A stretch of 32,021 bases of DNA from a virus (taxonomy: Duplodnaviria > Heunggongvirae > Uroviricota > Caudoviricetes). The DNA lies in the IMG/VR virus record IMGVR_UViG_2531839667_000012; one strand, written 5' to 3'. The translations under genes and the position numbers were made by a program. The notes beneath the pieces were generated by a model. That model saw only the letters and a program-made list of their open reading frames with translations, had not been told where the DNA came from and did not search any database. How positions within the stretch are numbered: the first letter of the stretch is position 1; each line of letters begins with the position of its first letter. This document shows, piece by piece, positions 1 to 25,928 of the stretch.

Positions 1-1200
1 ATGCTGACCGATACCAAGCTGAAAAACCTCAAAGCGCGGGAAAAACTTTATAAAGTTGCAGACCGTGATGGGCTGTATGTAACCGTATCTCCCAAGGGAT
101 TGGTGACGTTTCGCTATGACTATCGAATCAATGGTCGTCGTGAAACGTTAACGATTGGTCGCTATGGTGACGGTATTTCTCTGGCGCAGGCGCGCGAAAA
201 ATTAGTGGAAGCTAAAAAACGCGTAAATGCAGGAATATCGCCCGCTGGAGAGAAGCGTGACGGTAAAACAAAGCGAAAAGAAGAAAAGACACTCCACGAT
301 TTTACCGTCAGCTACATGAAACACACCCGGCTGGCGGACAGCACAAGGGCGATGAAGCAAAGCATTATCGACAGAGACATCACCCCAGTATGGGGGCGCA
401 AGCTGCTGTCAGAGATAACCCCCTCTCTTCTACGTGAGTATTGCGACAAGATAAAAGCGCGTGGTGCGCCAGCGACAGCGATTCAGGTTCGCAATATCGT
501 TAGCGCGGTGTTTAAGTTCGCCGCGCTTCACGGCAACTATTACCCCAATCCTGCCGAAGAGGTTTTACCGGCTTCAATTGCGACATTCGAAGCGCGCGAC
601 AGAGCGCTCAAACCAGAAGAGATAGGCTGGTTTTTCAATCAGCTTGAACAAACGGGTACATTACCCACCATCAAGCTGGCCATTAAATTGGTTTTATTAA
701 CGATGGTGCGTAAAAGCGAACTGCTGAACGCGCCGTGGGGCGAGGTTAATTTTAATGCCTGCCTTTGGACGATTGACGCTAGCCGTATGAAGGGATCACG
801 GGATCATAATGTTTACCTGTCCCGGCAGGCGCAGGACATTCTGATTGCTCTAAAAATGTGCGCAGGAAGCAGTGATTGGGTTTTACCTTCATGCAATCAG
901 TCATCGCATAAGACCATGTCGGCGGCGACCTTAAACCGGGTCATTAATCTTACGGTTAAGCAGGCGCAGGAACGGGGGATCAGGCTGGCGTCGTTTTCCG
1001 TTCACGATATGCGCCGAACAGCATCGACGTTATTACATGAGGCTGGGTTTAATTCCGACTGGATAGAAAAATGCCTCGCGCACGAGGAAAGAAGCGTCAG
1101 AGCCGTTTATAACAAAGCGGAATACGCAGAACAGCGCCGCGACATGTTGCAGCAATGGGCGGATATGATTGATGGATGGATCAAGCAATACCGCCCGTGA
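1..1200 (+). CDS. int: Tyrosine site-specific integrase, P4/CP4-57 type (N-terminal arm-binding domain, HxxR box, C-terminal catalytic Tyr region)
   Basis: 399 aa ORF; N-terminus LTDTKLKNLK...GLYVTVSPKG typical of P4-family integrases; HDMRRTAST and AVYNKAEY motifs near the C-terminus. ATG is at window position 1, so the true start could lie upstream. Confidence 0.9.
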   Translation: MLTDTKLKNLKAREKLYKVADRDGLYVTVSPKGLVTFRYDYRINGRRETLTIGRYGDGISLAQAREKLVEAKKRVNAGISPAGEKRDGKTKRKEEKTLHDFTVSYMKHTRLADSTRAMKQSIIDRDITPVWGRKLLSEITPSLLREYCDKIKARGAPATAIQVRNIVSAVFKFAALHGNYYPNPAEEVLPASIATFEARDRALKPEEIGWFFNQLEQTGTLPTIKLAIKLVLLTMVRKSELLNAPWGEVNFNACLWTIDASRMKGSRDHNVYLSRQAQDILIALKMCAGSSDWVLPSCNQSSHKTMSAATLNRVINLTVKQAQERGIRLASFSVHDMRRTASTLLHEAGFNSDWIEKCLAHEERSVRAVYNKAEYAEQRRDMLQQWADMIDGWIKQYRP

Positions 1201-1203
1201 GTG

Positions 1204-1470
1204 TTATGCCGGGATTTTGGTGCCAGAGCGCTTTGGGGCTTTGGCCAGATTCTTCTGTACCGCGTTATCAGTAGGGTGATAATTATTTTCCTGCCGTGCC
1301 TTGAGCCAGCGTTCCACTTCCTCTTTGTCCCACGCGACGGCGCGCTTTGTCAGCGCAAAACGCTTGGGAAACAGGCCTTTTTGTTCCAACGCATAAATCG
1401 TACTTTCAGAGAGTGGCACCATCTGTAAAAGCACGTTTTTTCTAATGGCAATTTTCATTGTTTTCCCCAT
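1204..1470 (-). CDS. alpA: AlpA/Vis-family small DNA-binding protein (excisionase-like regulator)
   Basis: 88 aa ORF with LSESTIYALEQKGLFPKRFALTKRAVAWDKEEVERWL, matching the AlpA/Vis pattern; convergent with int, stops 3 bp apart. Start may instead be the ATG at 1458 (GGGGA upstream). Confidence 0.8.
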   Translation of the reverse strand: MGKTMKIAIRKNVLLQMVPLSESTIYALEQKGLFPKRFALTKRAVAWDKEEVERWLKARQENNYHPTDNAVQKNLAKAPKRSGTKIPA

Positions 1471-1819
1471 GCCGTTCGGCGTTCAGGTGTTGCCACTGCG
1501 CTGCAATCCGCTTCATCACCGCATTCCCCTCCGGGATCACCTCCTGCGGCTCTTTCATCAACATTACCCGCCCCCGGATAACGATCAGAGCCTGTTCCAG
1601 CAGGTCATAGTCCAGATAACAGAGGTCGGGAATATCCAGTTGCCACACGTAGCCATTCCATGCTGAAAGCAGCACTTGCGCGGCGGCGCGTCCACCGCTG
1701 GTTTCTGTGAGCGCAACGTCGACAAGGGCATTGACAGCAAGGCGGTATTCCTCCGGTGTTACGCAAAGTCTTTGCCGTTGGGTTTCTTGTGTTGCCAGAG
1801 CCTTAAATATTTCGTTCAT
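1442..1819 (-). CDS. Hypothetical protein, downstream of primase in the same operon
   Basis: 125 aa ORF, backbone-like composition, tightly packed between primase stop (1829) and alpA; no motif recognised. Confidence 0.5.
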   Translation of the reverse strand: MNEIFKALATQETQRQRLCVTPEEYRLAVNALVDVALTETSGGRAAAQVLLSAWNGYVWQLDIPDLCYLDYDLLEQALIVIRGRVMLMKEPQEVIPEGNAVMKRIAAQWQHLNAERHGENNENCH

Positions 1820-1828
1820 AACATTTCC

Positions 1829-4483
1829 TTATCGTTGAAAAACCCAGCACTTCACCGTCGCCGGGCGGCGCGATGCGGCTGGGTAACGGCGGTTAAATTC
1901 GGCGTTAATGCCGCTGTTAACCGTTCTGACTTCAATAAACTTGTGGGTACGGCTGGTTTTTAGCACTCGCTTCAAATCGCTGACCGGCGGGATCTGCTGG
2001 CGGCGTTCGGTAGCCAGTTGAATAAAGTGGTTAAGGTTGACGGCGATAAGCTGTTCATCGCGCGAGTGGTTAAGCTGCGGTTCGTCGTCGCCATCGAGGA
2101 AGTCGAAAATATCCCAGAACTCCTGCACCAGAGGATGATCGGCGCTGATGGCCTGCTGGCGCTCCAGACTGAGGCGGATAAACATTTCTCTGGTTGCCTG
2201 TAGCTGCTCCTTCGTGACCGGAATAACCAGCGCCAGCGCGTCGAGCAGCGCCATAAGCTGGGCGTGGTTTTTAATGATGCGGATATGGCGAATATCGGGG
2301 TGGGCGTGAAGCTGCTGCTCGTATAGCGGGATCTGCCGGTTGACGCACTCCAGCACGGCCTGTTCCGCCAGCGCTGCCTTCAGCATAAAGCCGGAAAGCT
2401 GTTCCACCGGCAGGCGTTCGAGCTGCTCGGCAGCGACCTTGGTCTGAGTATTCTGGCCGCTGCGGTCGGTGTACAGGTGAATAATACGTTCCAGCACCGG
2501 GTTAGAGGCGCTGACGTCGGCGTTTTGCGCAATCACAATCGCGCCCCGGAACGGAGGTTCATAGGTCTCGTTACCGCTGTTACGCAGACCGCGAGACCGC
2601 ACTGACCGCCCGTTGTAGGCGGTTTTTAGCTCTTCCCAATCAAAGCCGCGTTGCTTTGCACCCTCCTGATTACGGTCACCCTCGATCAGCACCACCGGCA
2701 TGTTCGCCACCTGCGCAAAGTTGCGCGCGCGGGCGGCCAGCGTTGATTTAGACGGATCGAAACCTTCATAGTCGCGTCGGCCTAACAGCTTCCAGAGAAA
2801 CTCTATCAGCGTGGTTTTGCCGCTGCCGGGTTCGCCAACGATTTCCAGAAACGGAAAGCTCTTGTGCTTGTCGCGGATCTGTTCGGCAAACATCGTCCCA
2901 AACCAGAACGCCAGCGCCACAAAGCCCTTTGCGCCAAACGCCTGCCAGAGTAGCTGGGGCCACTGGCTGTCCATCTGTTTTAAATTGTTGTTCAGCGTCA
3001 GGCTGACCGACTGGTTCAGGCTTTTAAGGCTGAGTTTGCCCATGTCGAAGAAGTCTTCTTCGTTGAGTGTGTACAGCCGACCATCGCGAACGGCCAGATC
3101 GTTGAACACGTAAGCGCGGTATTCTTTGCTGTAGCCGATAAAATCAGTGGTCTGGACAGTTTTGATTTTGGGAAGCTGCTTGAGCAGCAACTTATCTAAC
3201 TGCTGACTGGTGCCGGTGAAGATGCCGCCCTGCGCGATATGCAGCAGGCGCTTTTTGAATTCTGAGCCGCTGGAAAGTTGGGAGCCGGTGAAGGTGTTTT
3301 TTATCGGCGGCGTGTCGTCCGGGAAGTTAATGCGAAAGTAATACCAGCTTTCGTCGGTAATGGTGTTGGCCTGATAGTAGAGGGCGGTCGGGTAGCAGTT
3401 GGCGATCTCCACCACGGCGGACGACTCTTTCAGCGCCTTCTGTTTCAGCTCTTCTTCGCTCAGGTCGTCATTGGAGAATGAGATGCTTTCATGCACCCGC
3501 ATATAGCGGTCAATATCCAGCTTGAACCAGAACAGGCGGCTGTCAAACTCGAAGTGGAACTCTTTACGCTCTGTCTGTTCGTGCATCAGCAGGGCTTTGG
3601 CGGCGGGAGAGGTGGCGATCAGCAGAGAGCCGTAGTAGCGGTATTTCTTCACCAGCTCCGGGTTAAGCCGGTCGCGCTGGTGCAAATCGTTCCAGTCCAG
3701 CTTGCTGCGGGAATGCGGCGTCTGTGCGGCGGCTGCGCTCCAGCCTTCGTCCCGGCTGCGCTTTACCCATCGCCGGGTATAGCTCATGCCCGCCTTGTCG
3801 TTATCCAGCGCCCAGACCAGTAAAGGGCGCTTTTTATCCACGAACAGCGCGGCCAGTTGACTTAACGCCTGCGCCGGATAGTTGTTGCAGGTCATCAGGG
3901 AAACGGCGGCGATGCCGTGGTGATGCAAGGCGATAGCGTCAAAAATGCCTTCAACCAGCCAGATCTCCTGTTGTTCCTCCAGTTTCAGCGTTGGCAATTG
4001 CCACCATAGCCCGCTGTAAGCGCCGTGAAAGTTGGCTTTGCGATCGCCGAAACGTTGTGGACGGTCAACGATCCGCTCCCACCACACGCCGTCAGCCAGC
4101 GGGAAACGTACCGTCGCTGAACCGATATCACGCCGTGGGTCGTAGTAGTTCTCTTGAGTGTAACAGTCACGGATCAGCGAAAGGTCAAAGCCGCGCATCT
4201 CGCGCAGGTAGGCATCGGCGGCGGCCTGTGGGTTTTCCGGGGTTGGGGGATATCTGTCTGACCAGCTTTCAAACAGATCCGGGTACATATCTTTGATGTG
4301 GATTTCGGCATTGCATTTATTCAGGCGACCGCAGCGCAATACCCACGGGCTGATGGCATTGGTGTACAGCTCTTTTTTCTGGCAGTCCGGGCAGATGCCC
4401 TGCCGCAGCCAGTCGCCCTGTTCTTTAAAGGAAAAGTCGGCCAGCAGTCGCCGCGTAATTTCCTGATGAAGTTGTGGTTGCAT
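1829..4483 (-). CDS. Primase-helicase (N-terminal zinc finger, DnaG-like toprim motifs, C-terminal P-loop NTPase), P4 alpha-like in function
   Basis: 884 aa ORF; CPDC...C cysteine cluster near N-terminus; LVEGIFDAIAL and WALDNDKAG toprim-like motifs; Walker A GEPGSGKTT; AAAGG SD about 8 nt upstream of the ATG at 4483. Confidence 0.85.
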   Translation of the reverse strand: MQPQLHQEITRRLLADFSFKEQGDWLRQGICPDCQKKELYTNAISPWVLRCGRLNKCNAEIHIKDMYPDLFESWSDRYPPTPENPQAAADAYLREMRGFDLSLIRDCYTQENYYDPRRDIGSATVRFPLADGVWWERIVDRPQRFGDRKANFHGAYSGLWWQLPTLKLEEQQEIWLVEGIFDAIALHHHGIAAVSLMTCNNYPAQALSQLAALFVDKKRPLLVWALDNDKAGMSYTRRWVKRSRDEGWSAAAAQTPHSRSKLDWNDLHQRDRLNPELVKKYRYYGSLLIATSPAAKALLMHEQTERKEFHFEFDSRLFWFKLDIDRYMRVHESISFSNDDLSEEELKQKALKESSAVVEIANCYPTALYYQANTITDESWYYFRINFPDDTPPIKNTFTGSQLSSGSEFKKRLLHIAQGGIFTGTSQQLDKLLLKQLPKIKTVQTTDFIGYSKEYRAYVFNDLAVRDGRLYTLNEEDFFDMGKLSLKSLNQSVSLTLNNNLKQMDSQWPQLLWQAFGAKGFVALAFWFGTMFAEQIRDKHKSFPFLEIVGEPGSGKTTLIEFLWKLLGRRDYEGFDPSKSTLAARARNFAQVANMPVVLIEGDRNQEGAKQRGFDWEELKTAYNGRSVRSRGLRNSGNETYEPPFRGAIVIAQNADVSASNPVLERIIHLYTDRSGQNTQTKVAAEQLERLPVEQLSGFMLKAALAEQAVLECVNRQIPLYEQQLHAHPDIRHIRIIKNHAQLMALLDALALVIPVTKEQLQATREMFIRLSLERQQAISADHPLVQEFWDIFDFLDGDDEPQLNHSRDEQLIAVNLNHFIQLATERRQQIPPVSDLKRVLKTSRTHKFIEVRTVNSGINAEFNRRYPAASRRPATVKCWVFQR

Positions 4484-4571
4484 TGCCAGTACCTTTATTC
4501 AGGTAATACTTACCCGTCGCATAGACACGTTGTTTATGCGTTGTGGTTGTGAGTCTTTTATTTACTGAGCG

Positions 4572-4802
4572 TTACGCGATTTTCTGTTTTTGCAGAAATT
4601 GCCCGCGTGTGGATAGTGGTATGTGTATCTTAGGATTCGGGCAACCGCTCGGTACCACCGTTCCCATCACGGTTTCCATTGCGATAAATGAAAACGAACA
4701 GTTAACGTTTTTGCACTGGTAATAGAGCTTACGTACCAGCGGTGACATATATTCGCTGCTGCGAATTATCGCCTTACCGTCGCAGTGTGGGCATTTCATC
4801 AT
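4572..4802 (-). CDS. ogr: Ogr/Delta-family zinc-finger late transcription activator
   Basis: CPHCDGKA...YYQCKNVNCSFSF matches the Ogr C-x2-C...C-x4-C pattern; ORF track begins at a GTG (4820), but an ATG at 4802 with AAGGAG upstream is the more likely start. Confidence 0.85.
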   Translation of the reverse strand: MMKCPHCDGKAIIRSSEYMSPLVRKLYYQCKNVNCSFSFIAMETVMGTVVPSGCPNPKIHIPLSTRGQFLQKQKIA

Positions 4803-4838
4803 GTCCGATCTCCTTACCACTTTTAACTAACTGAAACA

Positions 4839-5045
4839 CTAACGCTTTTCGTTAACGGACTGACGAAATAGTGTGATGCCGTTCAAAAAAATGATTCTTG
4901 CCATGCTGGACATCGAACGGTTCTGATCCAGCGCTAATGCTTCCAGTTCCGCGATTTCAGCGGGGAGCAGGCGCATTGCCACCGGTTTGTTCGACATCAC
5001 CCCGCGAGGTGCTCGTGAGCGTAAGACGTTCTCATTTGTTTTCAT
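4839..5045 (-). CDS. Small ribbon-helix-helix (CopG/Arc-like) regulator, first gene of the leftward operon (Cox/Apl-position analogue)
   Basis: 68 aa ORF; KPVAMRLLPAEIAELEALALDQNRSMSSMARIIF fits an RHH beta-strand plus two helices; divergent from the XRE gene; start may be the internal ATG at 4997. Confidence 0.55.
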   Translation of the reverse strand: MKTNENVLRSRAPRGVMSNKPVAMRLLPAEIAELEALALDQNRSMSSMARIIFLNGITLFRQSVNEKR

Positions 5046-5054
5046 GGTGGTATA

Positions 5055-5077
5055 TTGTGGTTATTAACATTACACAA
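5055..5077. promoter_or_regulatory. Inverted repeat TTGTG-N13-CACAA in the 55-bp divergent intergenic region; candidate operator of the switch
   Basis: Sequence ttgtggttattaacattacacaa lies between the divergent RHH (minus) and XRE (plus) genes. Confidence 0.35.
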
Positions 5078-5100
5078 AGCGTATAGGAAAAATATTCCCT

Positions 5101-5466
5101 ATGTCAACCGAGAAACAGGAAATATTTTACATTATTGGGGCTAGGTTGCGAGAAGAACGTGAGCGACTTGAGAAGAGCCAGAAATTTATGGCTGAGGCAC
5201 TTGGGGCGGATATCAAAACATGGAACAACTATGAGCGGGGGGCATCGGTGCCTGATGCTCATAAATTAACCATTATAGCGGCAGTGGGTGTAGACGTTCT
5301 GTATGTTCTGACTGGCAACCGCACGCCTGTAGTTACGTTGTCCAGTAAAGAGAGTGTGTTGGTCGAAAATTACCGTTCTGCTACGCCAGAACACCAGTCC
5401 ACCCTTGACACGGTTAGCGCTGCGCTTGCGCAACCGGGTGTAGGGAAGAAAGCTGGAGGGGCGTAA
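5101..5466 (+). CDS. XRE-family helix-turn-helix regulator (candidate immunity repressor / operon regulator)
   Basis: 121 aa; N-terminal IGARLREERERLEKSQKFMAEALGADIKTWNNYERG is an HTH_XRE/Cro-C1 pattern; AGGAAA upstream; stops 5 bp before the next gene. Confidence 0.8.
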   Translation: MSTEKQEIFYIIGARLREERERLEKSQKFMAEALGADIKTWNNYERGASVPDAHKLTIIAAVGVDVLYVLTGNRTPVVTLSSKESVLVENYRSATPEHQSTLDTVSAALAQPGVGKKAGGA

Positions 5467-5470
5467 TTTT

Positions 5471-5905
5471 ATGTTTAATACAGTATCTCTTATTATTGTT
5501 GTGATTTTGCTATGTGCTGTCGTTTCAGCTCTTATTACTCAGAAGAGAGAAAAGAAAAAAGGGAGCGTAGATAAAGTTAGTGATGAAATTTTACGTATCA
5601 GGTCTCTTGGGAAAAAACAACCGCTTTATTATTCTAACGCAACCACAAGATATGAAGAAATACCGCCGTCTGTTCAAAAAAATAGAAAAATTAATATACT
5701 GAAAATAGGAAAAGTAAAATATATCGCTTTCAGTTACATAGATAGTAAAGGTGATTTTACTCACCGTGAGGTGGATGTTTCATCTATAGATAATGAATAT
5801 TTACAAGGGTATTGCCACTTAGCTAAAGAGTATAGAACATTTCGCCTTGATAGGATTCAGGGGGATGTTATTTGTAGAGATACAGGGGAAGTTATTTTAA
5901 ATTAA
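5471..5905 (+). CDS. Membrane-anchored WYL-domain protein (N-terminal TM helix, C-terminal WYL-like ligand-binding domain)
   Basis: 144 aa; hydrophobic N-terminus VSLIIVVILLCAVVSALI followed by KREKKK; C-terminal YIAFSYIDSKGDFTHREVDVSSIDNEYLQGYCHLAKEYRTFRLDRIQ resembles the WYL signature; strongly AT-rich. Confidence 0.6.
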   Translation: MFNTVSLIIVVILLCAVVSALITQKREKKKGSVDKVSDEILRIRSLGKKQPLYYSNATTRYEEIPPSVQKNRKINILKIGKVKYIAFSYIDSKGDFTHREVDVSSIDNEYLQGYCHLAKEYRTFRLDRIQGDVICRDTGEVILN

Positions 5906-5929
5906 CGATAAATATTAAGTGAGGATGTT

Positions 5930-6331
5930 TTGAATACATATAATTTATTTATTAGTCATTCATGGAAATATAATGATACATATGAATCATTGGTACGTCT
6001 TTTAAAAGGAAGAGGATATTTTGATTTTAAAAATTACTCAGTACCAAGAATAGATCCTATCATTGGTGCTAATAGCCATTCAGCTTTATATTCAGCAATT
6101 CAAAATCAGATGCGACCGTCTCAGGTAGTTTTGATTTTAGCCGGTGTATATGCATCATATAGTACTTGGATTGATGCAGAAATAAGGATAGCCAAGGATT
6201 GGAAAAAGCCAATTATCGCTATTGAACCTTGGGGATCTGAGAGGACATCCAAGGTAGTAAAAGATGCAGCGAACAGAATTGTAAAATGGAACTCAGATAG
6301 TATTGTTAAAGCAATTAGAGAGTTGGCATAA
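5930..6331 (+). CDS. Minimal TIR-like domain protein (predicted NAD+-processing signal generator)
   Basis: 133 aa; begins LFISHSWKY (TIR betaA-like) and contains YASYSTWIDAEI, resembling the TIR SxWxxxE catalytic-glutamate motif; TTG start with GAGGA upstream; AT-rich. Confidence 0.6.
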   Translation: MNTYNLFISHSWKYNDTYESLVRLLKGRGYFDFKNYSVPRIDPIIGANSHSALYSAIQNQMRPSQVVLILAGVYASYSTWIDAEIRIAKDWKKPIIAIEPWGSERTSKVVKDAANRIVKWNSDSIVKAIRELA

Positions 6332-6341
6332 GGATTAACTG

Positions 6342-7307
6342 ATGAGAAAGGCTCTGTTTGTTGGGATTAATGAATATGCGGAAATTTCTCATCTTGCGGG
6401 ATGTGAAAATGATGCTATGAAGATGTCTGCGGCATTGTCCAGACATGCGGATGGGCGTCCTAATTTTGAAGGGAAAGATTTGATTCACCGTGAGCAGATG
6501 CCTGTAACTAAGGTATTGCTTGAGCAAGAAATTCAGACTTTATTCAGTGGTTCAGCAGATATAGCTTTATTATTCTTTGCTGGGCATGGGTATTTTGATG
6601 AAAATATAGATGAAGGGGTTATCATTCCTCATGATTACTCTTCTCATCAAAGCAATGGTGTGAGAATCAGTGATATCATGCTATGGGCATCGAGAGCAAC
6701 CAATATTAAAAATAAAATAATAATACTAGATTGCTGTCAGGCGGGCGCTGCCGGACAAGTCAGGAACTTAAGAGGTGGAGACTCCATTCTTGCTGATGGC
6801 ACAACAATATTAACCGCATGTCAGCGTGATGAATATGCGCAAGAGCAGGATGGTCAGGGTATTTTTACAGCCTTAATGTTGGAGGCTTTATATGGCGCAG
6901 GTGCTAATATATTGGGGCATGTAACACCCGGTAGTTTGTATAGCTTTGTTGACCAAGCATTAGGTGCATGGGAGCAGCGACCGGTATTTAAAACAAATGT
7001 ATCCAGATTCGTAGTGCTAAGAGAAGTCGGGCCAAGAATCCCGTTAGAAACATTAAGGCAATTACCTGATTGGTTTGCTAGTGGTAGTGCTGAATATCCT
7101 CTTGATCCTAGTTACGAGCCTGATTCAGGAGCACCAAATGAGGATAATGTAAGGATATTTCGGCAATTACAAGCCTGTAATCGTCATGGCCTTGTTGAAC
7201 CTGTTAACGCAGAACATATGTATTATGCAGCGATGAATTCAACTGCATGTAGATTGACCGCTTTGGGAGCCTATTATAGAAAACTGGCAGAGAAAAGGCG
7301 TTTTTGA
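6342..7307 (+). CDS. Caspase-like protease (peptidase C14 / metacaspase-like His-Cys dyad) with C-terminal domain of unknown function
   Basis: 321 aa; KALFVGINEY start, FFAGHGYF (His-Gly) and IILDCCQAGAAG (catalytic Cys) in caspase order and spacing; AAGGA SD 7 nt upstream; AT-rich. Confidence 0.8.
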   Translation: MRKALFVGINEYAEISHLAGCENDAMKMSAALSRHADGRPNFEGKDLIHREQMPVTKVLLEQEIQTLFSGSADIALLFFAGHGYFDENIDEGVIIPHDYSSHQSNGVRISDIMLWASRATNIKNKIIILDCCQAGAAGQVRNLRGGDSILADGTTILTACQRDEYAQEQDGQGIFTALMLEALYGAGANILGHVTPGSLYSFVDQALGAWEQRPVFKTNVSRFVVLREVGPRIPLETLRQLPDWFASGSAEYPLDPSYEPDSGAPNEDNVRIFRQLQACNRHGLVEPVNAEHMYYAAMNSTACRLTALGAYYRKLAEKRRF

Positions 7308-7332
7308 TTAATCGGGTGTACGGGGGTTGGTT

Positions 7333-8436
7333 TCAATCCAGCCCTAGCTCACACTCCACCGCCGTCCCATACCCACTGCTGTTATCCAACGTATGCACGC
7401 ACCGCGTAATCACCCACGCGGTGCCGTCAATCTCCGCCTTAAACCCCTTCACCTGCACCGACAGTTCCGGGAACAAATCGGGCCGTCCGCGCGCAAGATT
7501 CAGGCTGAACGTTGCCGCGCCGCGCTGTAGCTGCTCCCACGCGCTTTTTGCCGCTCTGTAGGCGTTATTTTTGTTGGCATAGGTGTGGCGCAGCACCTTG
7601 ATATTTCCCTCTTCGCCAACCATCACGTTATCAGCATTGAATGAGGCGTCTGACGGCGGTGATTCTGTTGGTTGCGTTTGTGGACGGTTTTTCCGTGTCT
7701 TGCGCTTCATGTCAGTGGACTGCTTTTTTGCCTGCCGTGTATCCAGCCAGTAGGCCGTCACACCGGTATACGCCTCCCTGTCCGCGATGCTGAACCGGTG
7801 GCTGTCGCCGTCCTCGCGGGTAATGGTTGCGACCGGCAGCGGTTTGCCGCTGGCACTTTTACCGGAACCTGTCGGCATTAGCAGCAGAGCATCATTTTTC
7901 ACGCAGGCGATAGCGCCGTGCAGTTGCGCCAGCCGGGTCAGGAAGGAGGCATCGGATTCGTTAGTCTGGTCAACGTGCTCAATGGCGATCCCAGCCAGCT
8001 CGCCGCTGACGGTTGATTCCAGCTTATGACGCGCCGCCACGGTTTGCACAATCGCGCCCAGCGTCACATCATGGTAGCTCTGTTCCCGTTTAACGTTCAG
8101 CGAATCGCGGAAATCGGCGCTGCGGGCGCGGAGGCTGAGTACGTCCGGTGCGCCGCTGTGCTCCAGTTCGTCCACTGTGAAGACATTCTGGTGCATCACG
8201 CCGTCACCCTTCCAGCCCAGAGAAACCGTTAGCTTTTCGCCCTTTGCCGGAAACGCCAGCAGGCCGTCGCTGTCGTCCAGTTCGAGCTGCAGTTCGTCGG
8301 CCTCAAAGCCCCGGTTGTCGGTGATACGCAGGCTGATTAAGCGGTTGTCCAGATTCCGCGTAATGTCCTTACCGTTCAGCACCACGCTGTACTCCGGCTG
8401 CGGCTGGGCGTTTAAGAGTGCGTTTAACATCGTCAT
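7333..8436 (-). CDS. D: P2 gpD-like tail protein (late control gene D)
   Basis: 367 aa, sequence and position (after U, before ogr) match P2 gene D. Confidence 0.85.
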   Translation of the reverse strand: MTMLNALLNAQPQPEYSVVLNGKDITRNLDNRLISLRITDNRGFEADELQLELDDSDGLLAFPAKGEKLTVSLGWKGDGVMHQNVFTVDELEHSGAPDVLSLRARSADFRDSLNVKREQSYHDVTLGAIVQTVAARHKLESTVSGELAGIAIEHVDQTNESDASFLTRLAQLHGAIACVKNDALLLMPTGSGKSASGKPLPVATITREDGDSHRFSIADREAYTGVTAYWLDTRQAKKQSTDMKRKTRKNRPQTQPTESPPSDASFNADNVMVGEEGNIKVLRHTYANKNNAYRAAKSAWEQLQRGAATFSLNLARGRPDLFPELSVQVKGFKAEIDGTAWVITRCVHTLDNSSGYGTAVECELGLD

Positions 8437-8861
8437 AGTCCGTCTACCATCGTGATGATGTCGCCCAGCAAGCCACCCAGCTTCGGCGGATCGACACGTT
8501 TTAACGCCAGCGTAAACTCAATGCGCCGGGCCGCACCGTCGCGAAAAAAGACGCTCCGGGTGACGTTCAGACTCTCAATCACAAACCAGCCATGCAGCGA
8601 TCCGGTGCCTTCAATCAGCGGCCAAGCCATCCCCTGATCGGCCATCTTTCGCAGGAAAAACAGGGTAAATCGCCCGCCGGTCAGTTCCGGCAACAGCACG
8701 CCGTTTAGCGTAATGGTTTCGTCACCCACGCCGATAAACTGGCTGGCCGGACGTAGCCCCACGCGGGAACTGGCAGGATGCCGCCACGCTACGGCGTGCT
8801 GCATATCCTGATAGGGCAGGGTTTTCAGGCTGAAGACGAACAGCCCCAGTACCATCATCAT
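8433..8861 (-). CDS. U: P2 gpU-like tail protein
   Basis: Start taken at ATG ATG ATG (8861) preceded by AAGGAGG that overlaps the T stop; the longer ORF in the track overlaps T and is unlikely. Confidence 0.85.
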   Translation of the reverse strand: MMMVLGLFVFSLKTLPYQDMQHAVAWRHPASSRVGLRPASQFIGVGDETITLNGVLLPELTGGRFTLFFLRKMADQGMAWPLIEGTGSLHGWFVIESLNVTRSVFFRDGAARRIEFTLALKRVDPPKLGGLLGDIITMVDGL

Positions 8862-8871
8862 AAGAGCCTCC

Positions 8872-11721
8872 TTAATCAATATCGCGCAGGCTGCTGCGGG
8901 TTCTGGCGGCATTCTGCCGTTCGCGCTTGTCCAGTTCCTGCGCCACCAGTTTCGCCAGTTGTTGTTCATTCATGCCGGGAGCAGCGTGGATGTGAATAGT
9001 GACAGGCCCGCCGCTGGCTGCCGGTGCAGAAAGGGATGCTGGCGCGAGCGGGGCGCGATTATCCGGCAGGGCGGCGATAGGGGGCATGGCGACAGCGGCG
9101 GCGCTGAGCGTCAGCCCGGCACCGGCGGCGATTAACTGCTTCGAAAGTTGCCCTACGCTGGCCAGCGCCGTTTGCGTGTTGCCCTCAATCCCGACCGCCA
9201 GCCCGTCCACGGTATAGCGGCCCATTTCGGCGAATACCCGCGACGGTGAGTGAATACCGAGCTTGTCCTTGAACCAGTTGGAAATATTGCTGCCCAGATC
9301 CAGCACGCCCTGCTTAATCGCTTCCCATTTGTCGAAGATCCCCTGTTTCAGCCCTTCCATGATATTGCCGCCGATCTCGGTAAAGCGGGTGGACAGGTTA
9401 CTGAAACTGTTCAGAACGTTATCCCAGACTGTGGTAAACACCGTGGACAGGTTCCAGTTGGTGAAAAAAGCAATGATGGAGTTCAGGGCGGTGCTGACGG
9501 TGGTTTTAATTCCCTCCCAGACGCCAGTGGCGGTAGTGGTAATGCCGCTCCAGATTTGCCCCAGAAATGCCACCACGCTGTTCCACGCCTCAACGGTCGT
9601 CGCTTTGATAGTATCCCAGTGCTGGTAAATCAGACCGGGCAGCGTCCAGTTCAGCAGGATATTCACCAGCCCGTCCCAGCAGCCGAAGAGAAACGTTTTA
9701 ATCCCTTCCCAGACGGCGCTGGTTGTGGCTTTTACGCTGTTCCACGCATCGCTGCATACCTGCTTAAAACTATTCCAGAGCGCGGCGAACTTCGGCCCCA
9801 GCCAGTCCCAGTTACTCCAGATCCAGATGGCGGCACCGGCGATCAGCGCAATCACCGCCAGAATCGGGTTAGCCATCATTGCGCGACCCAGCCAAATTAC
9901 CGCTTTTCCCGTGCCTTTAAAGGCATTCGCCAGCAGCCCCAGCGCGCTGCCGCCCTTAATACCGAGCACCGACAGGCTGAGTTTTAGCGCCGCCATCGGG
10001 GCGAGGATACCGGCCAGCGTCAGGGATATGCCACCGAGCGCTACGGCGAACGCGCCGATCGCCATGCCGATTTTCACCAGCGTGGCGGTTAGCTGCGGGT
10101 TGGCCTTCATCCATGCGCCGATGGACTGTAAAACGCCGGTCATACGTTGGGTAATGCTGCGCAACGGGCTGTCTACCGATTCGAACATCTCAATACCGAG
10201 ATCTTCCCACGCTGAGTCAAGATTCTGGAGATCCCCCTTCATATTATCGGCCATCGTTTTGGCAACTTTGCCAGCGGTACCGAGGGAGGCTTTCACCTGT
10301 TCGGCATAGGCTTCAATGCGCTGCGACGGATCGAGTGACGCCTGTTTGTCGAGCAGTTCCATCATAGCGGAGGAGGCTTCCACGCCGAAAATATCCTTGA
10401 TGTAGGACATTTTCTTCACGTTGCCGACACCGCCGATCCCTTGCTTCTCAAATGCGGCGGAGATTTCTGCCAGTAGCTGCGGCATCTCTTTCATTTTCCC
10501 GGTGCTGTCTGCCACCGAGACTTTCAGATCTTCCAGCGCGGCGGCGGCTTTTTTCGGCTGTGATGCCAGCCGCAACAGCGCCATACGTAAGGATGTACCT
10601 GCCTGCGATCCCTGAATCCCTACGTTGCCCAGCATCCCGACCATTGCTGACATGGTTTCAAAATCCTGCCCTGCCGCCTGCGCAGCCGGGCCAACGTATT
10701 TCATGGTTTCACCCAGCATCTGCAGGTCGGTATTAGACGTAGTGAACGTGAAAGTCAGCGCGTCAGCCATGCGTTGCATCTGGTCTGCCGGGATTTTATA
10801 GGCGCTCTGGATGTTGGAGGCGATATCGGAAACCTGTGCCAATTGCGTATCCATCCCCGCCGCTTTCGCTAGATCCAGCATGTGCGGCATCGCCTTTTCG
10901 ATTTTGTCAGGCGAATAACCTGCCATTGCCAGAAAGCCTTGCCCCTGCGCTACGTCGTTAGCGGTGAAGCTGGTTGATGCGCCCAGCTCGCGTGATTGCA
11001 CCCGCAACCGCTTCAGTTCGTCAGAATTTTTATCGGTACGGGTTAGCGCCTGTACGCGCGACATGCCCACGTCGAAATCGTAGCCGGGCATCATTACCCG
11101 CGCGCTGCCGTAAAGCATACCCACGCCGGTGGCCGTCGTGGTTGCGCCGAATCCGGCCAGTTTGTTGCGGGCGTCCATTGCTCCTGCGTAGCTATTTTTT
11201 GCAGAGTTCATCCGCTGCTGCTGCCGGTTTAGCCGTTCCAGTCGCCTGCGCTGTTCCTCCATGCTACGGTTAGCACTCTCCAGTCGTTGCCGTAGTTCAC
11301 TCTGGCGCTGGCTGAGATTACGGGTATCGATACCAGCGTTGCGCAGTACGGTGCGGCTACGCTGCTGGGCTTGAGTAAGCTGACCATGCCGTTCTTTAAG
11401 TCGCCGCGCCTCCTGCTGAGCACGTTCAAACTCCCGACGCATCGCTGCCGTGGGCGCAGTGCTGCTTTGCATTGCCGTGGCCAGCGCCCGGACGCGATCC
11501 TGCGCGCTATTAAGCTGGTTGCCGGTGACGGCGACATCGCGCGCCAGCTTGCGGTAGCCATCGATTTGTCCGGCCTGTTTGTTCAGGTCTTTGACCTGCT
11601 GCTGCGCCGCTTTCAGCGCTCTGGCGGTGTCGCTACTGCTTTGCGTGACGGCTTTTAGCGGGCGGGTGATTTTATCTACGGCGCTGAGTAGTACCTGTAA
11701 ACGAAGGTTTTGTGTGCTCAT
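8872..11721 (-). CDS. T: Tail tape measure protein (P2 gpT-like)
   Basis: 949 aa; coiled-coil-rich N-terminus, Gly/Ala-rich hydrophobic central segment; start ATG overlaps E' stop (ATGA). Confidence 0.9.
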   Translation of the reverse strand: MSTQNLRLQVLLSAVDKITRPLKAVTQSSSDTARALKAAQQQVKDLNKQAGQIDGYRKLARDVAVTGNQLNSAQDRVRALATAMQSSTAPTAAMRREFERAQQEARRLKERHGQLTQAQQRSRTVLRNAGIDTRNLSQRQSELRQRLESANRSMEEQRRRLERLNRQQQRMNSAKNSYAGAMDARNKLAGFGATTTATGVGMLYGSARVMMPGYDFDVGMSRVQALTRTDKNSDELKRLRVQSRELGASTSFTANDVAQGQGFLAMAGYSPDKIEKAMPHMLDLAKAAGMDTQLAQVSDIASNIQSAYKIPADQMQRMADALTFTFTTSNTDLQMLGETMKYVGPAAQAAGQDFETMSAMVGMLGNVGIQGSQAGTSLRMALLRLASQPKKAAAALEDLKVSVADSTGKMKEMPQLLAEISAAFEKQGIGGVGNVKKMSYIKDIFGVEASSAMMELLDKQASLDPSQRIEAYAEQVKASLGTAGKVAKTMADNMKGDLQNLDSAWEDLGIEMFESVDSPLRSITQRMTGVLQSIGAWMKANPQLTATLVKIGMAIGAFAVALGGISLTLAGILAPMAALKLSLSVLGIKGGSALGLLANAFKGTGKAVIWLGRAMMANPILAVIALIAGAAIWIWSNWDWLGPKFAALWNSFKQVCSDAWNSVKATTSAVWEGIKTFLFGCWDGLVNILLNWTLPGLIYQHWDTIKATTVEAWNSVVAFLGQIWSGITTTATGVWEGIKTTVSTALNSIIAFFTNWNLSTVFTTVWDNVLNSFSNLSTRFTEIGGNIMEGLKQGIFDKWEAIKQGVLDLGSNISNWFKDKLGIHSPSRVFAEMGRYTVDGLAVGIEGNTQTALASVGQLSKQLIAAGAGLTLSAAAVAMPPIAALPDNRAPLAPASLSAPAASGGPVTIHIHAAPGMNEQQLAKLVAQELDKRERQNAARTRSSLRDID

Positions 11722-12139
11722 GATTCAACACCGCTGCGCTGGCGGGCCTGCTCCCGCCAGTAAAGGGTTTCGCCAAGGGTTAATGCGTCCATCGCGGATA
11801 GCGGCCAATGGAAGATGACGGCTATGTCGCCTTGAGCATCCTCTATGCGTCCGGGGTATCCGCTGCTTCCGGCGAGGTCTGAGGCAAAAAACCGACAAGC
11901 GCCGTACCGAAGGCTGTCAGGTCGATAAAATCCAGTTGCGCCACCTCATGCTTATTCAGCGGCGGTGCGGTGATGCGCGGCAGAACGTTGGTGAGTGCAT
12001 CTACGTTAAGGCTTAACAGCTCCACCAGACTGACACCGCGCAGGTCGCCGCCCAGCGGTTTACGGATCTGGAACTCGACAAATTCGGTTTCACCGCGTTT
12101 CAGGGGAGTATTCAGGGTAACGGTTTTACGTTCGCTCAT
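11718..12139 (-). CDS. E': E+E' fusion produced by programmed -1 ribosomal frameshift at T_TTT_TTG (minus-strand heptamer at 11885-11891)
   Basis: In-frame codons GGT TTT TTG give the slippery heptamer; hand translation of the -1 frame continues about 57 codons to a TGA at 11718-11720 overlapping the T start codon, giving a fusion of about 141 aa as in P2. Confidence 0.75.
11843..12139 (-). CDS. E: Tail assembly chaperone E (P2 gpE-like)
   Basis: 98 aa ORF directly upstream of T, downstream of FII. Confidence 0.85.
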   Translation of the reverse strand: MSERKTVTLNTPLKRGETEFVEFQIRKPLGGDLRGVSLVELLSLNVDALTNVLPRITAPPLNKHEVAQLDFIDLTAFGTALVGFLPQTSPEAADTPDA

Positions 12140-13962: not shown

Positions 13963-14721
13963 TTAATTCAGGATAATCAATTCTGATGTGGCGCTGGCTG
14001 GCTTTCCACCTACGGTATAGCGAATCCCTACCGTTGAGAATGTCAGGCCGTGGAAGATATCGCGCATTTCCGGGATGTCGTTAACCGAGATAATCATCCG
14101 GCCCTGCATGGTGCGCGCCAGCTCTGCCATACGCTGGTACTGCTCAAGGCCAAATGGTACGCCGTAGCCTTCGGTTTTCCAGTATGGAGGGTCGCAGTAG
14201 AACAGGGTATGCGGGCGGTCATAGCGGCGAATACAGTCGGCCCAGTCCAGATTTTCAATGCAGACGCGCGCCAGCCGCAGATGGGCGGCGGATAAATCCT
14301 CTTCCATACGCAGCAGGTTCAGGCGCGGCGGTGAGGTGGTAGCGGTACCGAACGTGCGGCTTTCCACTTTGCCGCCGAATGCCAGCTTTTGCAGATAGTA
14401 GAAGCGCGCCGCGCGCTGGATATCGGTCAGCGTTTCTTCCGGGGTGATCTGGAGCCAGCGGTACATTTCGCGGCTGACCAGCGACCATTTAAACTGGCGG
14501 ACAAACTCTTCTAAATGGTGCTGAAGTACGCGGTAGAGGTTGGTAACGTCACCGTTGATATCATTCAGCACCTCGGCCTGTGCGGGCTGTTTCATAAAGA
14601 ACAACGCCGCCGCCCCGCAGAACGGTTCAACGTAGCAGCGGTGTTTGGGAAACAGTGGCAGAATGTGTTTTGCCAGCCTGCGCTTACCGCCGATCCACGG
14701 AATAACGGGTAACGTATTCAT
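13963..14721 (-). CDS. dam: DNA adenine N6-methyltransferase, Dam/D12 class
   Basis: 252 aa; motif I EPFCGAAALFF and motif IV FYCDPPYW; located between tail-fibre assembly gene G and FI. Confidence 0.85.
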   Translation of the reverse strand: MNTLPVIPWIGGKRRLAKHILPLFPKHRCYVEPFCGAAALFFMKQPAQAEVLNDINGDVTNLYRVLQHHLEEFVRQFKWSLVSREMYRWLQITPEETLTDIQRAARFYYLQKLAFGGKVESRTFGTATTSPPRLNLLRMEEDLSAAHLRLARVCIENLDWADCIRRYDRPHTLFYCDPPYWKTEGYGVPFGLEQYQRMAELARTMQGRMIISVNDIPEMRDIFHGLTFSTVGIRYTVGGKPASATSELIILN

Positions 14722-23999: not shown

Positions 24000-24018
24000 C
24001 GGAAGCGATTGGCGAGGG

Positions 24019-24339
24019 CTATGCCTCGTCGCTGTCGGTATTGATGATTTTCAGTTCAGCGGACTTCTGGAGCTGGATCAGCGCCGGAAGCAGAAGCGCG
24101 GTAGCCGACAGGCCATGCCCTAGCTGGCACAGGCTTTCAGCGGAGAATTCCAGCACGTTGCTGTCGGCAAAGGAGACGAAGGTTTTACCCAGAAAATGCA
24201 GGCCGTGACATAGTCCGGCGTAGCACTCTTCGCTGCTGTTGGCCAGTAGCAGAGTATCGTCGGCGTTCAGGTGTGAAATATCCATCTTGCGGATCGCGTC
24301 CGCCAGTTCAGAGGACAGAATATTGGTTTCAGGCACCAT
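24019..24339 (-). CDS. Hypothetical protein
   Basis: 106 aa ORF, backbone-like GC, overlaps the upstream 68-aa ORF by 11 nt; no motif recognised. Confidence 0.4.
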   Translation of the reverse strand: MVPETNILSSELADAIRKMDISHLNADDTLLLANSSEECYAGLCHGLHFLGKTFVSFADSNVLEFSAESLCQLGHGLSATALLLPALIQLQKSAELKIINTDSDEA

Positions 24340-24535
24340 GGCGCACCTCCAGCGGTTTGCAGGAGACGAACACCAGCGGGAAACCCGCCAGCAGGTCGCG
24401 AGCCTCGATTTCAGTTGTTGCCAGTACAGACACCAGACGCAGGGGCTGGATCTCGCGCAGCAGGCGGTTGGAACGGGCGTTCAGGAAGGTGTAGAGCTTT
24501 GAATGTGCGCGTATGTTACTATTAGCGGTAGCCAT
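24329..24535 (-). CDS. Hypothetical small protein
   Basis: 68 aa ORF, divergent from the Arc-like gene. Confidence 0.35.
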   Translation of the reverse strand: MATANSNIRAHSKLYTFLNARSNRLLREIQPLRLVSVLATTEIEARDLLAGFPLVFVSCKPLEVRHGA

Positions 24536-24635
24536 AGCATTAGCCTCTTTAATGTTGTGGTCAGAGGCCCGTTGGTGTTGGTAGCACCTGCGGGCTTCGT
24601 TCGTTTAAGGGTTGCAAAACATCACGTAATTGCGA

Positions 24636-24676
24636 TGTAATTACAACTACATCATTCTAAGGATTTTGTAATTACA
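24636..24676. promoter_or_regulatory. Two copies of the perfect 10-bp palindrome TGTAATTACA (24636-24645 and 24667-24676); candidate operators in a divergent promoter region
   Basis: Second copy ends immediately before the ATG of the Arc-like gene; an additional half-site-like GTAATTG at 24626-24632. Confidence 0.55.
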
Positions 24677-24847
24677 ATGTCAAGTGAAAAGGCTAAAACA
24701 GATCAGTACCAACTTCGTCTTGCTCATGAATTTAGAAAGCAGCTTGAAGAACAGGCTCGTAAAGATGGAGATACCTCTCTCGCAACATGGATAAAACGCG
24801 TTTTGCGTAAGGAACTTCAGTCACGAGGTATTGAACCCAAAGGATAA
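24677..24847 (+). CDS. Arc/MetJ-type ribbon-helix-helix repressor (56 aa; below the ORF-track size cutoff)
   Basis: Hand translation MSSEKAKTDQYQLRLAHEFRKQLEEQARKDGDTSLATWIKRVLRKELQSRGIEPKG; QYQLRLAHEF...SLATWIKRVL resembles Arc beta-strand and helices. Confidence 0.6.
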   Translation: MSSEKAKTDQYQLRLAHEFRKQLEEQARKDGDTSLATWIKRVLRKELQSRGIEPKG

Positions 24848-24948
24848 TTACGGAGATATCAAGCAGCGCTAAGAAGTTAGGATTATTTGTTCAGCCCAGA
24901 TTAGTCGATATGCACTGATTAACTTAAACATTGTGTGTAGGAGGTGTT

Positions 24949-25602
24949 GTGGATATTGAATTTTTTCTTAAAGAGCGCACAAGATTCGTTACTTATTTCT
25001 ATGAAACGGCTGCTGCACCATTTGTTAACATCATGAATGATATTGAGAATGAAGTGGAACCTTATATTCAGCCGTATGGTGAGAGTGATGAACCAGCTTT
25101 TTTAGATGAATGGTTAGATGCAAAGTCGGGATTAGAAACCTGTGGGCACCATGCATTATCGATGCTTTCGTCTTCTCTTCAGTTGTACCTGAAGGCGTGG
25201 GTAGATCGCTTAGGATATCATAGCGTGAAATCTGATATAAATTTCAAGAAGGGTTGGTTTAATGGCTATCGTGAAATTTTCAACAAAATTGAGTTGGAAA
25301 TGGCAAAATGTCCTGCAAATTTGGAAATAATTGAACAAATTCCCTTGGTGAGAAATCGTGTCCAGCATCCTGAGGAACTTACCTCAATTAATATTTCTCA
25401 CTCAAAAAATGACTTGGAAAAATATCCTCGCCCATACTTTATTCAGGAGTGTGAGCTACTTTTGGCTTCCGAACAGGAAGAAAAATCGTGGTTATTCCCA
25501 CCTACAATATCCCCGACTAAAGAGAAAATATTCGAAGCTATCAGAAATGTTGAAATGCTGTGCTCTTGGTTAGAGTCTGAGTATTGGTCGGCTCTTGACT
25601 AA
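24949..25602 (+). CDS. Hypothetical protein, AT-rich cargo gene under the Arc-like regulator
   Basis: ORF in the track starts at TTG 24931; GTG 24949 follows a GGAGG SD (short spacing). About 217-223 aa; no motif recognised. Confidence 0.5.
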   Translation: MDIEFFLKERTRFVTYFYETAAAPFVNIMNDIENEVEPYIQPYGESDEPAFLDEWLDAKSGLETCGHHALSMLSSSLQLYLKAWVDRLGYHSVKSDINFKKGWFNGYREIFNKIELEMAKCPANLEIIEQIPLVRNRVQHPEELTSINISHSKNDLEKYPRPYFIQECELLLASEQEEKSWLFPPTISPTKEKIFEAIRNVEMLCSWLESEYWSALD

Positions 25603-25637
25603 ATGTAGAATAGAGTAAGTCAGCGTCAAATGAAAAC

Positions 25638-25655
25638 AGCCCGACGAATCGGGCT
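25638..25655. terminator. Hairpin between convergent genes (candidate bidirectional terminator)
   Basis: AGCCCGA-cgaa-TCGGGCT stem-loop; T-run follows on the minus strand (GTTTTCA), weaker on the plus strand. Confidence 0.5.
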
Positions 25656-25691
25656 ATTATGGCTATCAGGCAAACACTACCTTCAAACTCA

Positions 25692-25928
25692 TTATGCCGC
25701 CTCAATACCCGCTCTGGTTAACATATAGTGGCCCCAGTGGGTTTTCTTCAGATAACCGGCCAGTTCCATCTGTGTCACAATAAATTCAGCGTTAACTATT
25801 TCTATATCTGCGTAGTCGGCCAGATCGCGCAGCGGCCATGTGCTGCGAACTCCGACGCTAACTATGGTATCTCTGATGCGGCGAGCGGTATCGGTCATTG
25901 GGCGGGTTCTGGCTGCCTGAATAGTCAT
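25692..25928 (-). CDS. Hypothetical small protein downstream of L
   Basis: Start chosen at ATG 25928 (MTIQAART...) with GGGGA upstream; ORF track begins at a GTG (25967). Confidence 0.4.
   Translation of the reverse strand: MTIQAARTRPMTDTARRIRDTIVSVGVRSTWPLRDLADYADIEIVNAEFIVTQMELAGYLKKTHWGHYMLTRAGIEAA

Follow-up and report, generated by a model that had tools for sequence, protein, structure and literature searches.

A TIR–caspase gene pair in a P2-like Escherichia coli prophage is very probably a type IV Thoeris system

Prophage setting and cargo genes

The window, namely the whole stretch of 32,021 nucleotides analysed here, is a P2-like prophage, which begins on the left with an integrase gene (1..1200), after which comes an AlpA-like gene, and the same left block holds a Toprim primase-helicase gene on the minus strand (1829..4483) and an Ogr/Delta zinc-finger gene followed by a gene of 68 aa; to the right of the cargo lie the minus-strand genes for gpD, gpU, the tape measure, gpE, the tube and the sheath. 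Between these two blocks stand four tightly spaced genes on the plus strand, which are an HTH repressor-like gene (5101..5466, 121 aa), a gene encoding a transmembrane (TM) helix and a WYL domain (5471..5905, 144 aa; hereafter TM-WYL), a gene for a ThsB-type TIR protein with a TTG start (5930..6331, 133 aa), and the gene for a caspase-like effector protease (6342..7307, 321 aa), which has an ATG start and a stop codon within its coordinates.

The HTH gene belongs to the prophage backbone. It is matched by Pfam HTH_31 and by RstR/DicA-like NCBIfam models, has a GC content of 0.50, and shares 95% DNA identity with related E. coli prophages in which other cargo follows it. The three genes behind it have GC contents of 0.32 (TM-WYL), 0.33 (TIR) and 0.42 (caspase), compared with about 0.58 in the neighbouring tail genes, and are therefore regarded as foreign cargo. 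That the caspase is borne by a prophage, as had been predicted from the DNA, is confirmed. In a sister prophage of E. coli GMF054 (NZ_CM183924.1), which has the same backbone and is integrated beside guaA, the slot from repressor to gpD (6506..9509 of the extracted locus) is occupied by genes for a DUF6037 protein, a nucleoid-associated protein and a hypothetical protein of 418 aa, which may be another defence cargo. Since the two sister prophages hold different genes there, the slot between repressor and gpD is a variable cargo site directly downstream of the repressor.

Megablast of positions 5000-7400 against 5,426 complete RefSeq E. coli genomes matched the HTH gene alone, so the cargo island is absent from these genomes, and megablast of positions 1-12000 against a phage collection returned no match. 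The exact caspase sequence lay in the same prophage in each copy inspected, and the NCBI label of the exact protein match reads simply 'caspase family protein [Escherichia coli]'. In a promoter and terminator scan, promoter-like sites occurred at the level of shuffled sequence, and terminator-like sites were in excess without a convincing site among them. Because the TIR–caspase pair lies directly downstream of the repressor gene, its expression in the lysogen is probable, where the repressor promoter probably drives transcription of the cargo.

Two further features of the late region were observed. A second stretch of lower GC content (0.43-0.49) extends over about 24000..25700 and may be a second cargo slot; its ORFs 24019..24339 (minus strand, 106 aa) and 24931..25602 (plus strand, 223 aa) had no Pfam or PADLOC match. 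Adjoining the tail sheath gene, a minus-strand gene at 13963..14721 encodes a D12-class N6-adenine DNA methyltransferase (Pfam E=6e-29; PADLOC MTase_II, 1.8e-114), apparently an orphan phage methylase.

The caspase domain and its type IV Thoeris homologues

The caspase/metacaspase signatures that had been read in canonical order in the N-terminal part of the 321-aa protein are all found at the predicted places: KALFVGINEY at aa 3-12 (nt 6348-6377), AGHG at aa 80-83 (nt 6579-6590) and LDCCQAG at aa 129-135 (nt 6726-6746). They lie within a Pfam Peptidase_C14 domain (PF00656) that spans aa 1-216 (6342..6989, plus strand) and scores 55 bits (E=1.1e-14), well above its cut-off of 21.4. Additionally, the PADLOC 'caspase' model matches the protein at 5.8e-18, and the NCBIfam model caspase_w_EACC1 matches it at 1.1e-22 with 80.6 bits, under its curated cut-off of 140 bits; judged from these profiles, the kinship with EACC1-associated caspases is through the caspase domain only. 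On the opposite strand inside the gene, a single ORF of at least 50 aa is present (6315..6527, 70 aa).

In an AlphaFold2 model of the whole protein, built with 46 homologues, the caspase core is modelled with confidence, whereas aa 134-230 are not. Foldseek of this model against the PDB retrieved the MALT1 paracaspase, CED-3, caspase-11 and metacaspases with E values down to 2e-10, the closest fold being the arginine-specific paracaspase MALT1. A PDB sequence search with the full protein gave only weak metacaspase matches (E of at least 0.019), and no solved structure of the family was found in it. With a caspase fold and an ordered His...Cys dyad, the protein belongs to peptidase family C14.

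Type IV Thoeris has been described as a two-gene defence system of a TIR protein and a caspase-like protein (Rousset et al., bioRxiv 10.1101/2024.10.24.620036; Science 387:510, 2025), in which the TIR protein makes N7-cADPR upon infection and a promiscuous, arginine-specific caspase-like protease thereby becomes active (Rousset et al., 10.1101/2024.10.24.620036). The operons of E. coli 328 (EcTIR and its caspase) and Pseudomonas sp. 1-7 (PsTIR and PsCaspase) protected E. coli against phage T6, the defence was lost with PsTIR E79Q or PsCaspase C129A, and the activated protease cut EF-Tu, RplE and many other proteins after arginine (Rousset et al., 10.1101/2024.10.24.620036). The MacSyFinder rule of that work calls a system where a protein with a TIR_2 or ThsB Pfam match lies within one gene of the caspase (Rousset et al., 10.1101/2024.10.24.620036); in the window, the ThsB_TIR gene ends 10 nt upstream of the caspase gene.

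The caspases used for comparison were reached through the neighbours of identical or near-identical TIR genes, in E. coli UMNK88 and in a Pseudomonas metagenome-assembled genome (MAG). Fourteen complete E. coli genomes carry the EcTIR DNA at 100% identity. In UMNK88, a gap of about 10 nt separates the exact EcTIR gene from the gene for a caspase of 321 aa, which we assume to be the same as the cloned E. coli 328 caspase; it is identical to the window protein at 228 of 321 positions (71%) without gaps, and at 67% over aa 226-321. The window caspase thus differs at 29% of its positions from the nearest validated one. For PsCaspase, the comparison was made with a near-copy from the Pseudomonas MAG, not with the cloned sequence. 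This MAG was retrieved by an exact 25-mer of the PsTIR–PsCaspase junction, and its TIR is identical at 118 of 123 residues to PsTIR; its caspase has 328 aa, and the Cys of its DSCHSG motif stands at position 129, which is the published C129 site. The alignment of the window caspase with this near-copy extends over the full length, with 45% identity (E=2e-94).

On the TIR side, the 133-aa protein is matched by Pfam ThsB_TIR (E=2.4e-16) and by PADLOC ThsB (4.9e-12). It has the same length as EcTIR and shares 102 of 133 residues (77%) with it, as the latter is given in Table S2 of the preprint, and the two TIR genes agree in DNA at only 267 of 399 positions. The predicted catalytic glutamate is E84, within WIDAEIR (codon 6179-6181, plus strand), which aligns with PsTIR E79. 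By analogy with the tested proteins, this TIR would be both the sensor and the signal synthase of the system.

The catalytic residues of the protease were assigned on an alignment of 76 diverse family members that are 32-71% identical to the window protein. In it D130 is kept in 76/76, C132 in 71/76 and H82 in 71/76 members, compared with just 58/76 for C131, and in the alignment with the PsCaspase near-copy, C129 of DSCHSG stands opposite C132 and H83 opposite H82. Together, E84, C132 and H82 of the window pair lie opposite the published residues. On family conservation and this alignment, the nucleophile is assigned to C132 (6735-6737), the second Cys of the CC pair, and not to C131, with H82 (6585-6587) as the His of the caspase dyad. 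Because of the conservation among the 76 members and the D-x-C arrangement of metacaspases and MALT1, C132 is taken as the nucleophile and D130 (6729-6731) is predicted to be the acid of the S1 pocket; from what is known of clan CD proteases, D130 would be the likely S1 acid for arginine.

The highest conservation of the whole protein is found in W210-V220 (WEQRPVFKTNV; 6969..7001, plus strand), which joins the caspase core to the C-terminal domain and is directly upstream of the latter. W210 and Q212 to T218 do not vary among 46 homologues, Q212, R213 and P214 are kept in at least 90% of the 76 diverse members, and the segment differs by one residue in the Pseudomonas protein. In the AlphaFold2 model this region has low confidence, and the low confidence over aa 134-230 is compatible with a region that may gain order upon activation.

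The C-terminal domain

The remainder of the protein had been described as about 130 aa without a recognisable motif. No family match was indeed found, and the part is shorter than described, with about 96-105 aa (aa ~217/226-321, nt ~6990/7017-7304). We delimit the C-terminal domain to aa 226-321 (7017..7304, plus strand, ~96 aa); it is homologous to the C-termini of the Ec and Ps caspases, and scans of the C-terminal part alone with Pfam (E up to 10) and NCBIfam gave no match. Modelled alone with 23 homologues, it folds with a pLDDT of 88.7 and a pTM of 0.78 into the order helix-strand-helix-strand-helix-strand-helix, and the structural neighbours of this model are DNA-binding winged helices of the MarR type. 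The structure comparison proposed with the original prediction yields a confident winged-helix-like fold with MarR-type neighbours; judged by sequence family together with the full set of MarR dimerisation helices, the domain is not one of the MarR-type transcription regulators. The domain is thus predicted to be winged-helix-like and is a putative N7-cADPR receptor or dimerisation module.

A profile of the C-terminal domain searched against 1.84 billion representative proteins matched 559 of them at E up to 1e-3. Among the 150 matches listed of these 559, most are 300-350 aa long and carry the domain C-terminally; the others are mainly short and likely fragments. The atypically long carriers that were scanned still have Peptidase_C14, and for this reason a modular sensor common to other effector types was rejected. 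A few carriers are devoid of Peptidase_C14 and look like chimeric gene calls with fragments of transposases or integrases. Judged from these profile matches, the domain is specific to the type IV caspase effector family and occurs almost only behind a Peptidase_C14 domain.

Two natural proteins with unusual architecture were observed among the carriers. In one of 836 aa (P0262), a single polypeptide comprises TIR_2, TPR repeats, Peptidase_C14 and the C-terminal domain, as a one-protein fused version, and this fusion is independent support for the view that TIR and caspase are functionally linked. In the other, of 1,017 aa (P0174), Peptidase_C14 matches in two stretches that are followed by the C-terminal domain.

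On the basis of a dimer modelled with AlphaFold3, it has been hypothesised that paired C-terminal domains form a pocket for N7-cADPR (Rousset et al., bioRxiv 10.1101/2024.10.24.620036), and no later paper or PDB entry that settles ligand binding by the domain was found in the searchable literature and the PDB. The window protein could thus be a type IV effector whose winged-helix-like domain serves in dimerisation, as a scaffold or in nucleic-acid binding, with N7-cADPR being sensed instead by the caspase domain or by the WxQRPVFKTNV segment. This reading, which we consider unlikely, agrees with the DNA-binding MarR-type winged helices as structural neighbours, with aa 210-220 and not the C-terminal domain being the most conserved stretch, and with the model-derived nature of the pocket. 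However, other Thoeris effectors have a dedicated sensor domain (SLOG or Macro), and the C-terminal domain is the only non-catalytic domain of this protein; it is almost exclusive to this caspase, and its polar or aromatic residues E259, Q277, H292, T306 and Y312 are highly conserved. Moreover, MarR-type folds themselves commonly bind small ligands at their dimer interfaces. The C-terminal domain is thus kept as the putative receptor of N7-cADPR, in line with the published hypothesis. The role of sensing a phage protein, which had been offered as another possibility for this domain, found no support.

A type IV Thoeris pair and its relation to known systems

In the protein database, 5,814 proteins are homologous to the caspase (E up to 1e-5); the alignments of the best 120 of these 5,814 all span at least 98% of the query, with identities of 58% or more. 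Among the homologues are proteins from hosts listed for type IV Thoeris in Table S1, namely Pseudomonas sp. Root329, URMO17WK12:I11 and V. parahaemolyticus; a further homologue, from Salmonella enterica, agrees at the species level with the serovar Heidelberg strains of that table (Rousset et al., 10.1101/2024.10.24.620036). All other contexts that were examined likewise have a TIR gene beside the caspase gene: the lambdoid prophage of E. coli UMNK88 (locus L005, 7001..8378), in which the genes for the Q antiterminator and the holin flank the 328-type pair, an integrase-flanked island in Salmonella (L007), an island in Pantoea agglomerans (L010), the Pseudomonas MAG (L013) and a faecal phage scaffold (L014). 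With the 328-type pair in a lambdoid prophage and the window pair in a P2-like one, a single type of system is thus carried by two E. coli phage families that are unrelated, at a different cargo site in each. In the Pantoea island (1..4593 of that locus), which looks like a composite defence island, two unannotated genes directly precede the TIR–caspase pair, an HxsD-like gene and two radical-SAM genes are its neighbours, and the island contains a relaxase.

This recurrent pairing bears on whether the protease might act independently of the TIR gene, through direct activation by a phage protein or in a housekeeping role for the prophage or host. Many bacterial caspase-like proteins do belong to other systems (CHAT/EACC1-type), with caspase_w_EACC1 matching the window protein weakly and below its cut-off. 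Nevertheless, TIR adjacency is kept across six independent contexts and in one TIR–caspase fusion, and the homologous system depends on the active sites of both proteins, its protease showing no activity unless the TIR product is present (Rousset et al., 10.1101/2024.10.24.620036), so that a TIR-independent protease appears highly improbable. [quoted passage not shown] That prediction, including a C-terminal domain that might sense a TIR-derived ligand, comes very near to the published mechanism and is supported in almost all its points. The arginine specificity, the identity of the signal as N7-cADPR and the defence phenotype are assigned to the window pair by homology.

A further question is whether the TM-WYL gene is part of the system. 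The encoded protein has an N-terminal TM helix (aa ~4-23) and a WYL domain (Pfam E=1.1e-7), and its gene starts 4 nt past the repressor stop and ends 24 nt short of the TIR gene. In a three-gene variant, TM-WYL would act with the TIR–caspase pair as an accessory regulator, as a second sensor, or as a membrane effector. In line with such a role, the gene is on the same strand as the TIR gene at that 24-nt spacing and with nearly the same GC content (0.32 and 0.33), it accompanies the pair in all prophage copies examined, and WYL domains are ligand-sensing regulators tied to defence, with TM-WYL itself being matched by the PADLOC models of Cas-associated WYL and DRT WYL proteins. However, the gene is missing at every other TIR–caspase locus examined (L005, L007, L010, L013 and L014), the validated two-gene systems included, the protein lacks the HTH usual in WYL regulators, and a search of 5.8 billion clustered proteins recovered no relative but itself, so that a signal of co-evolution is lacking. 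As a core component TM-WYL was rejected, owing to its absence from all other loci examined, and a three-gene variant seems improbable; the gene belongs to the same low-GC cargo and is probably no core component of the system. Were the three-gene reading true, the prophage copy would be a previously undescribed type IV Thoeris variant, in which a membrane-anchored WYL protein might tune or extend the signalling, for example by sensing the nucleotide signal or a phage cue.

Based on homology to the tested type IV Thoeris systems, we propose how the TIR–caspase pair may work. First, the ThsB-type TIR protein of 133 aa would sense infection by another phage and convert NAD+ to N7-cADPR through its catalytic E84. 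The N7-cADPR would then bind the 321-aa caspase-like protein, the hypothesised pocket being formed by the C-terminal domains (aa 226-321) paired in a dimer, and this binding would activate the dyad H82/C132 in the N-terminal caspase domain. Upon activation, the protease could cut after arginine in many host proteins, including EF-Tu and ribosomal proteins, with D130 as the likely S1 acid. Translation and growth would halt, and the infecting phage would be left without progeny, as in abortive infection. Probably expressed in the lysogen, the pair may thereby guard it against competing phages.

Compared with the E. coli 328-type pair, the window has the same gene order, the same protein lengths (133 and 321 aa), the same spacing of about 10 nt and the same carriage by an E. 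coli prophage. However, the 328-type pair is inserted between Q and holin in a lambdoid prophage, whereas the window pair lies between the repressor and gpD in a P2-like one and has the additional TM-WYL gene upstream, and the window copy is found in 0/5,426 complete RefSeq E. coli genomes as opposed to 14 for the 328-type. The mechanistically characterised system of Pseudomonas sp. 1-7 has the same two-gene layout, and its caspase shares WxQRPVFKTNV, LDPSYEP and RLTALG with the window protein, although its active-site motif is DSCHSG instead of DCCQAG and its C-terminal domain has an insertion of 11 aa. The two TIR proteins are barely alignable (~20% identity, BLASTP E=0.06), and therefore belong to different ThsB clades. 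Nevertheless, PsCaspase was activated by the metabolites of EcTIR (Rousset et al., 10.1101/2024.10.24.620036), from which it follows that the signal of the Ec-type TIR clade is the same. Given 77% identity to EcTIR, we infer that the window TIR would likewise put out N7-cADPR on infection.

Types I and II Thoeris, with a SIR2-SLOG or a Macro-TM effector, follow the same logic, wherein an ADPR-derived signal made by a TIR protein triggers a cell-killing effector via a sensor domain. However, their effector is an NADase or a pore, and not a protease as in the window; their signal is 3'cADPR or His-ADPR, whereas that of the window type would be N7-cADPR; and their SLOG and Macro sensors are Pfam-annotated folds, whereas the putative sensor of the window protein is winged-helix-like. 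With MALT1 and the metacaspases (clan CD, C14), the window protein shares the caspase fold (Foldseek E ~1e-10) and the D-x-C arrangement, and by homology to PsCaspase it would also share their P1 specificity for arginine. In contrast, sequence identity to these proteins is 16-22%, their domain partners are Ig/death domains or p10 where the window protein has a winged helix, and their regulation is by scaffold-driven dimerisation or Ca2+, whereas a nucleotide second messenger would regulate the window type.

Type IV Thoeris is already described, validated and catalogued, and the window copy is another allele of it on a different prophage family; since the system was published in 2024-25, no new kind of biology follows from the window pair. 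It adds a divergent E. coli allele, with 71% (caspase) and 77% (TIR) identity to the tested one, that is carried by a P2-like phage in a repressor-adjacent slot. The model of the C-terminal domain, its restriction to this family and the conservation of WxQRPVFKTNV are useful for designing ligand-binding experiments, and the assignment of C132, not C131, as the nucleophile and an orphan TM-WYL gene that travels with the system are of further practical value.
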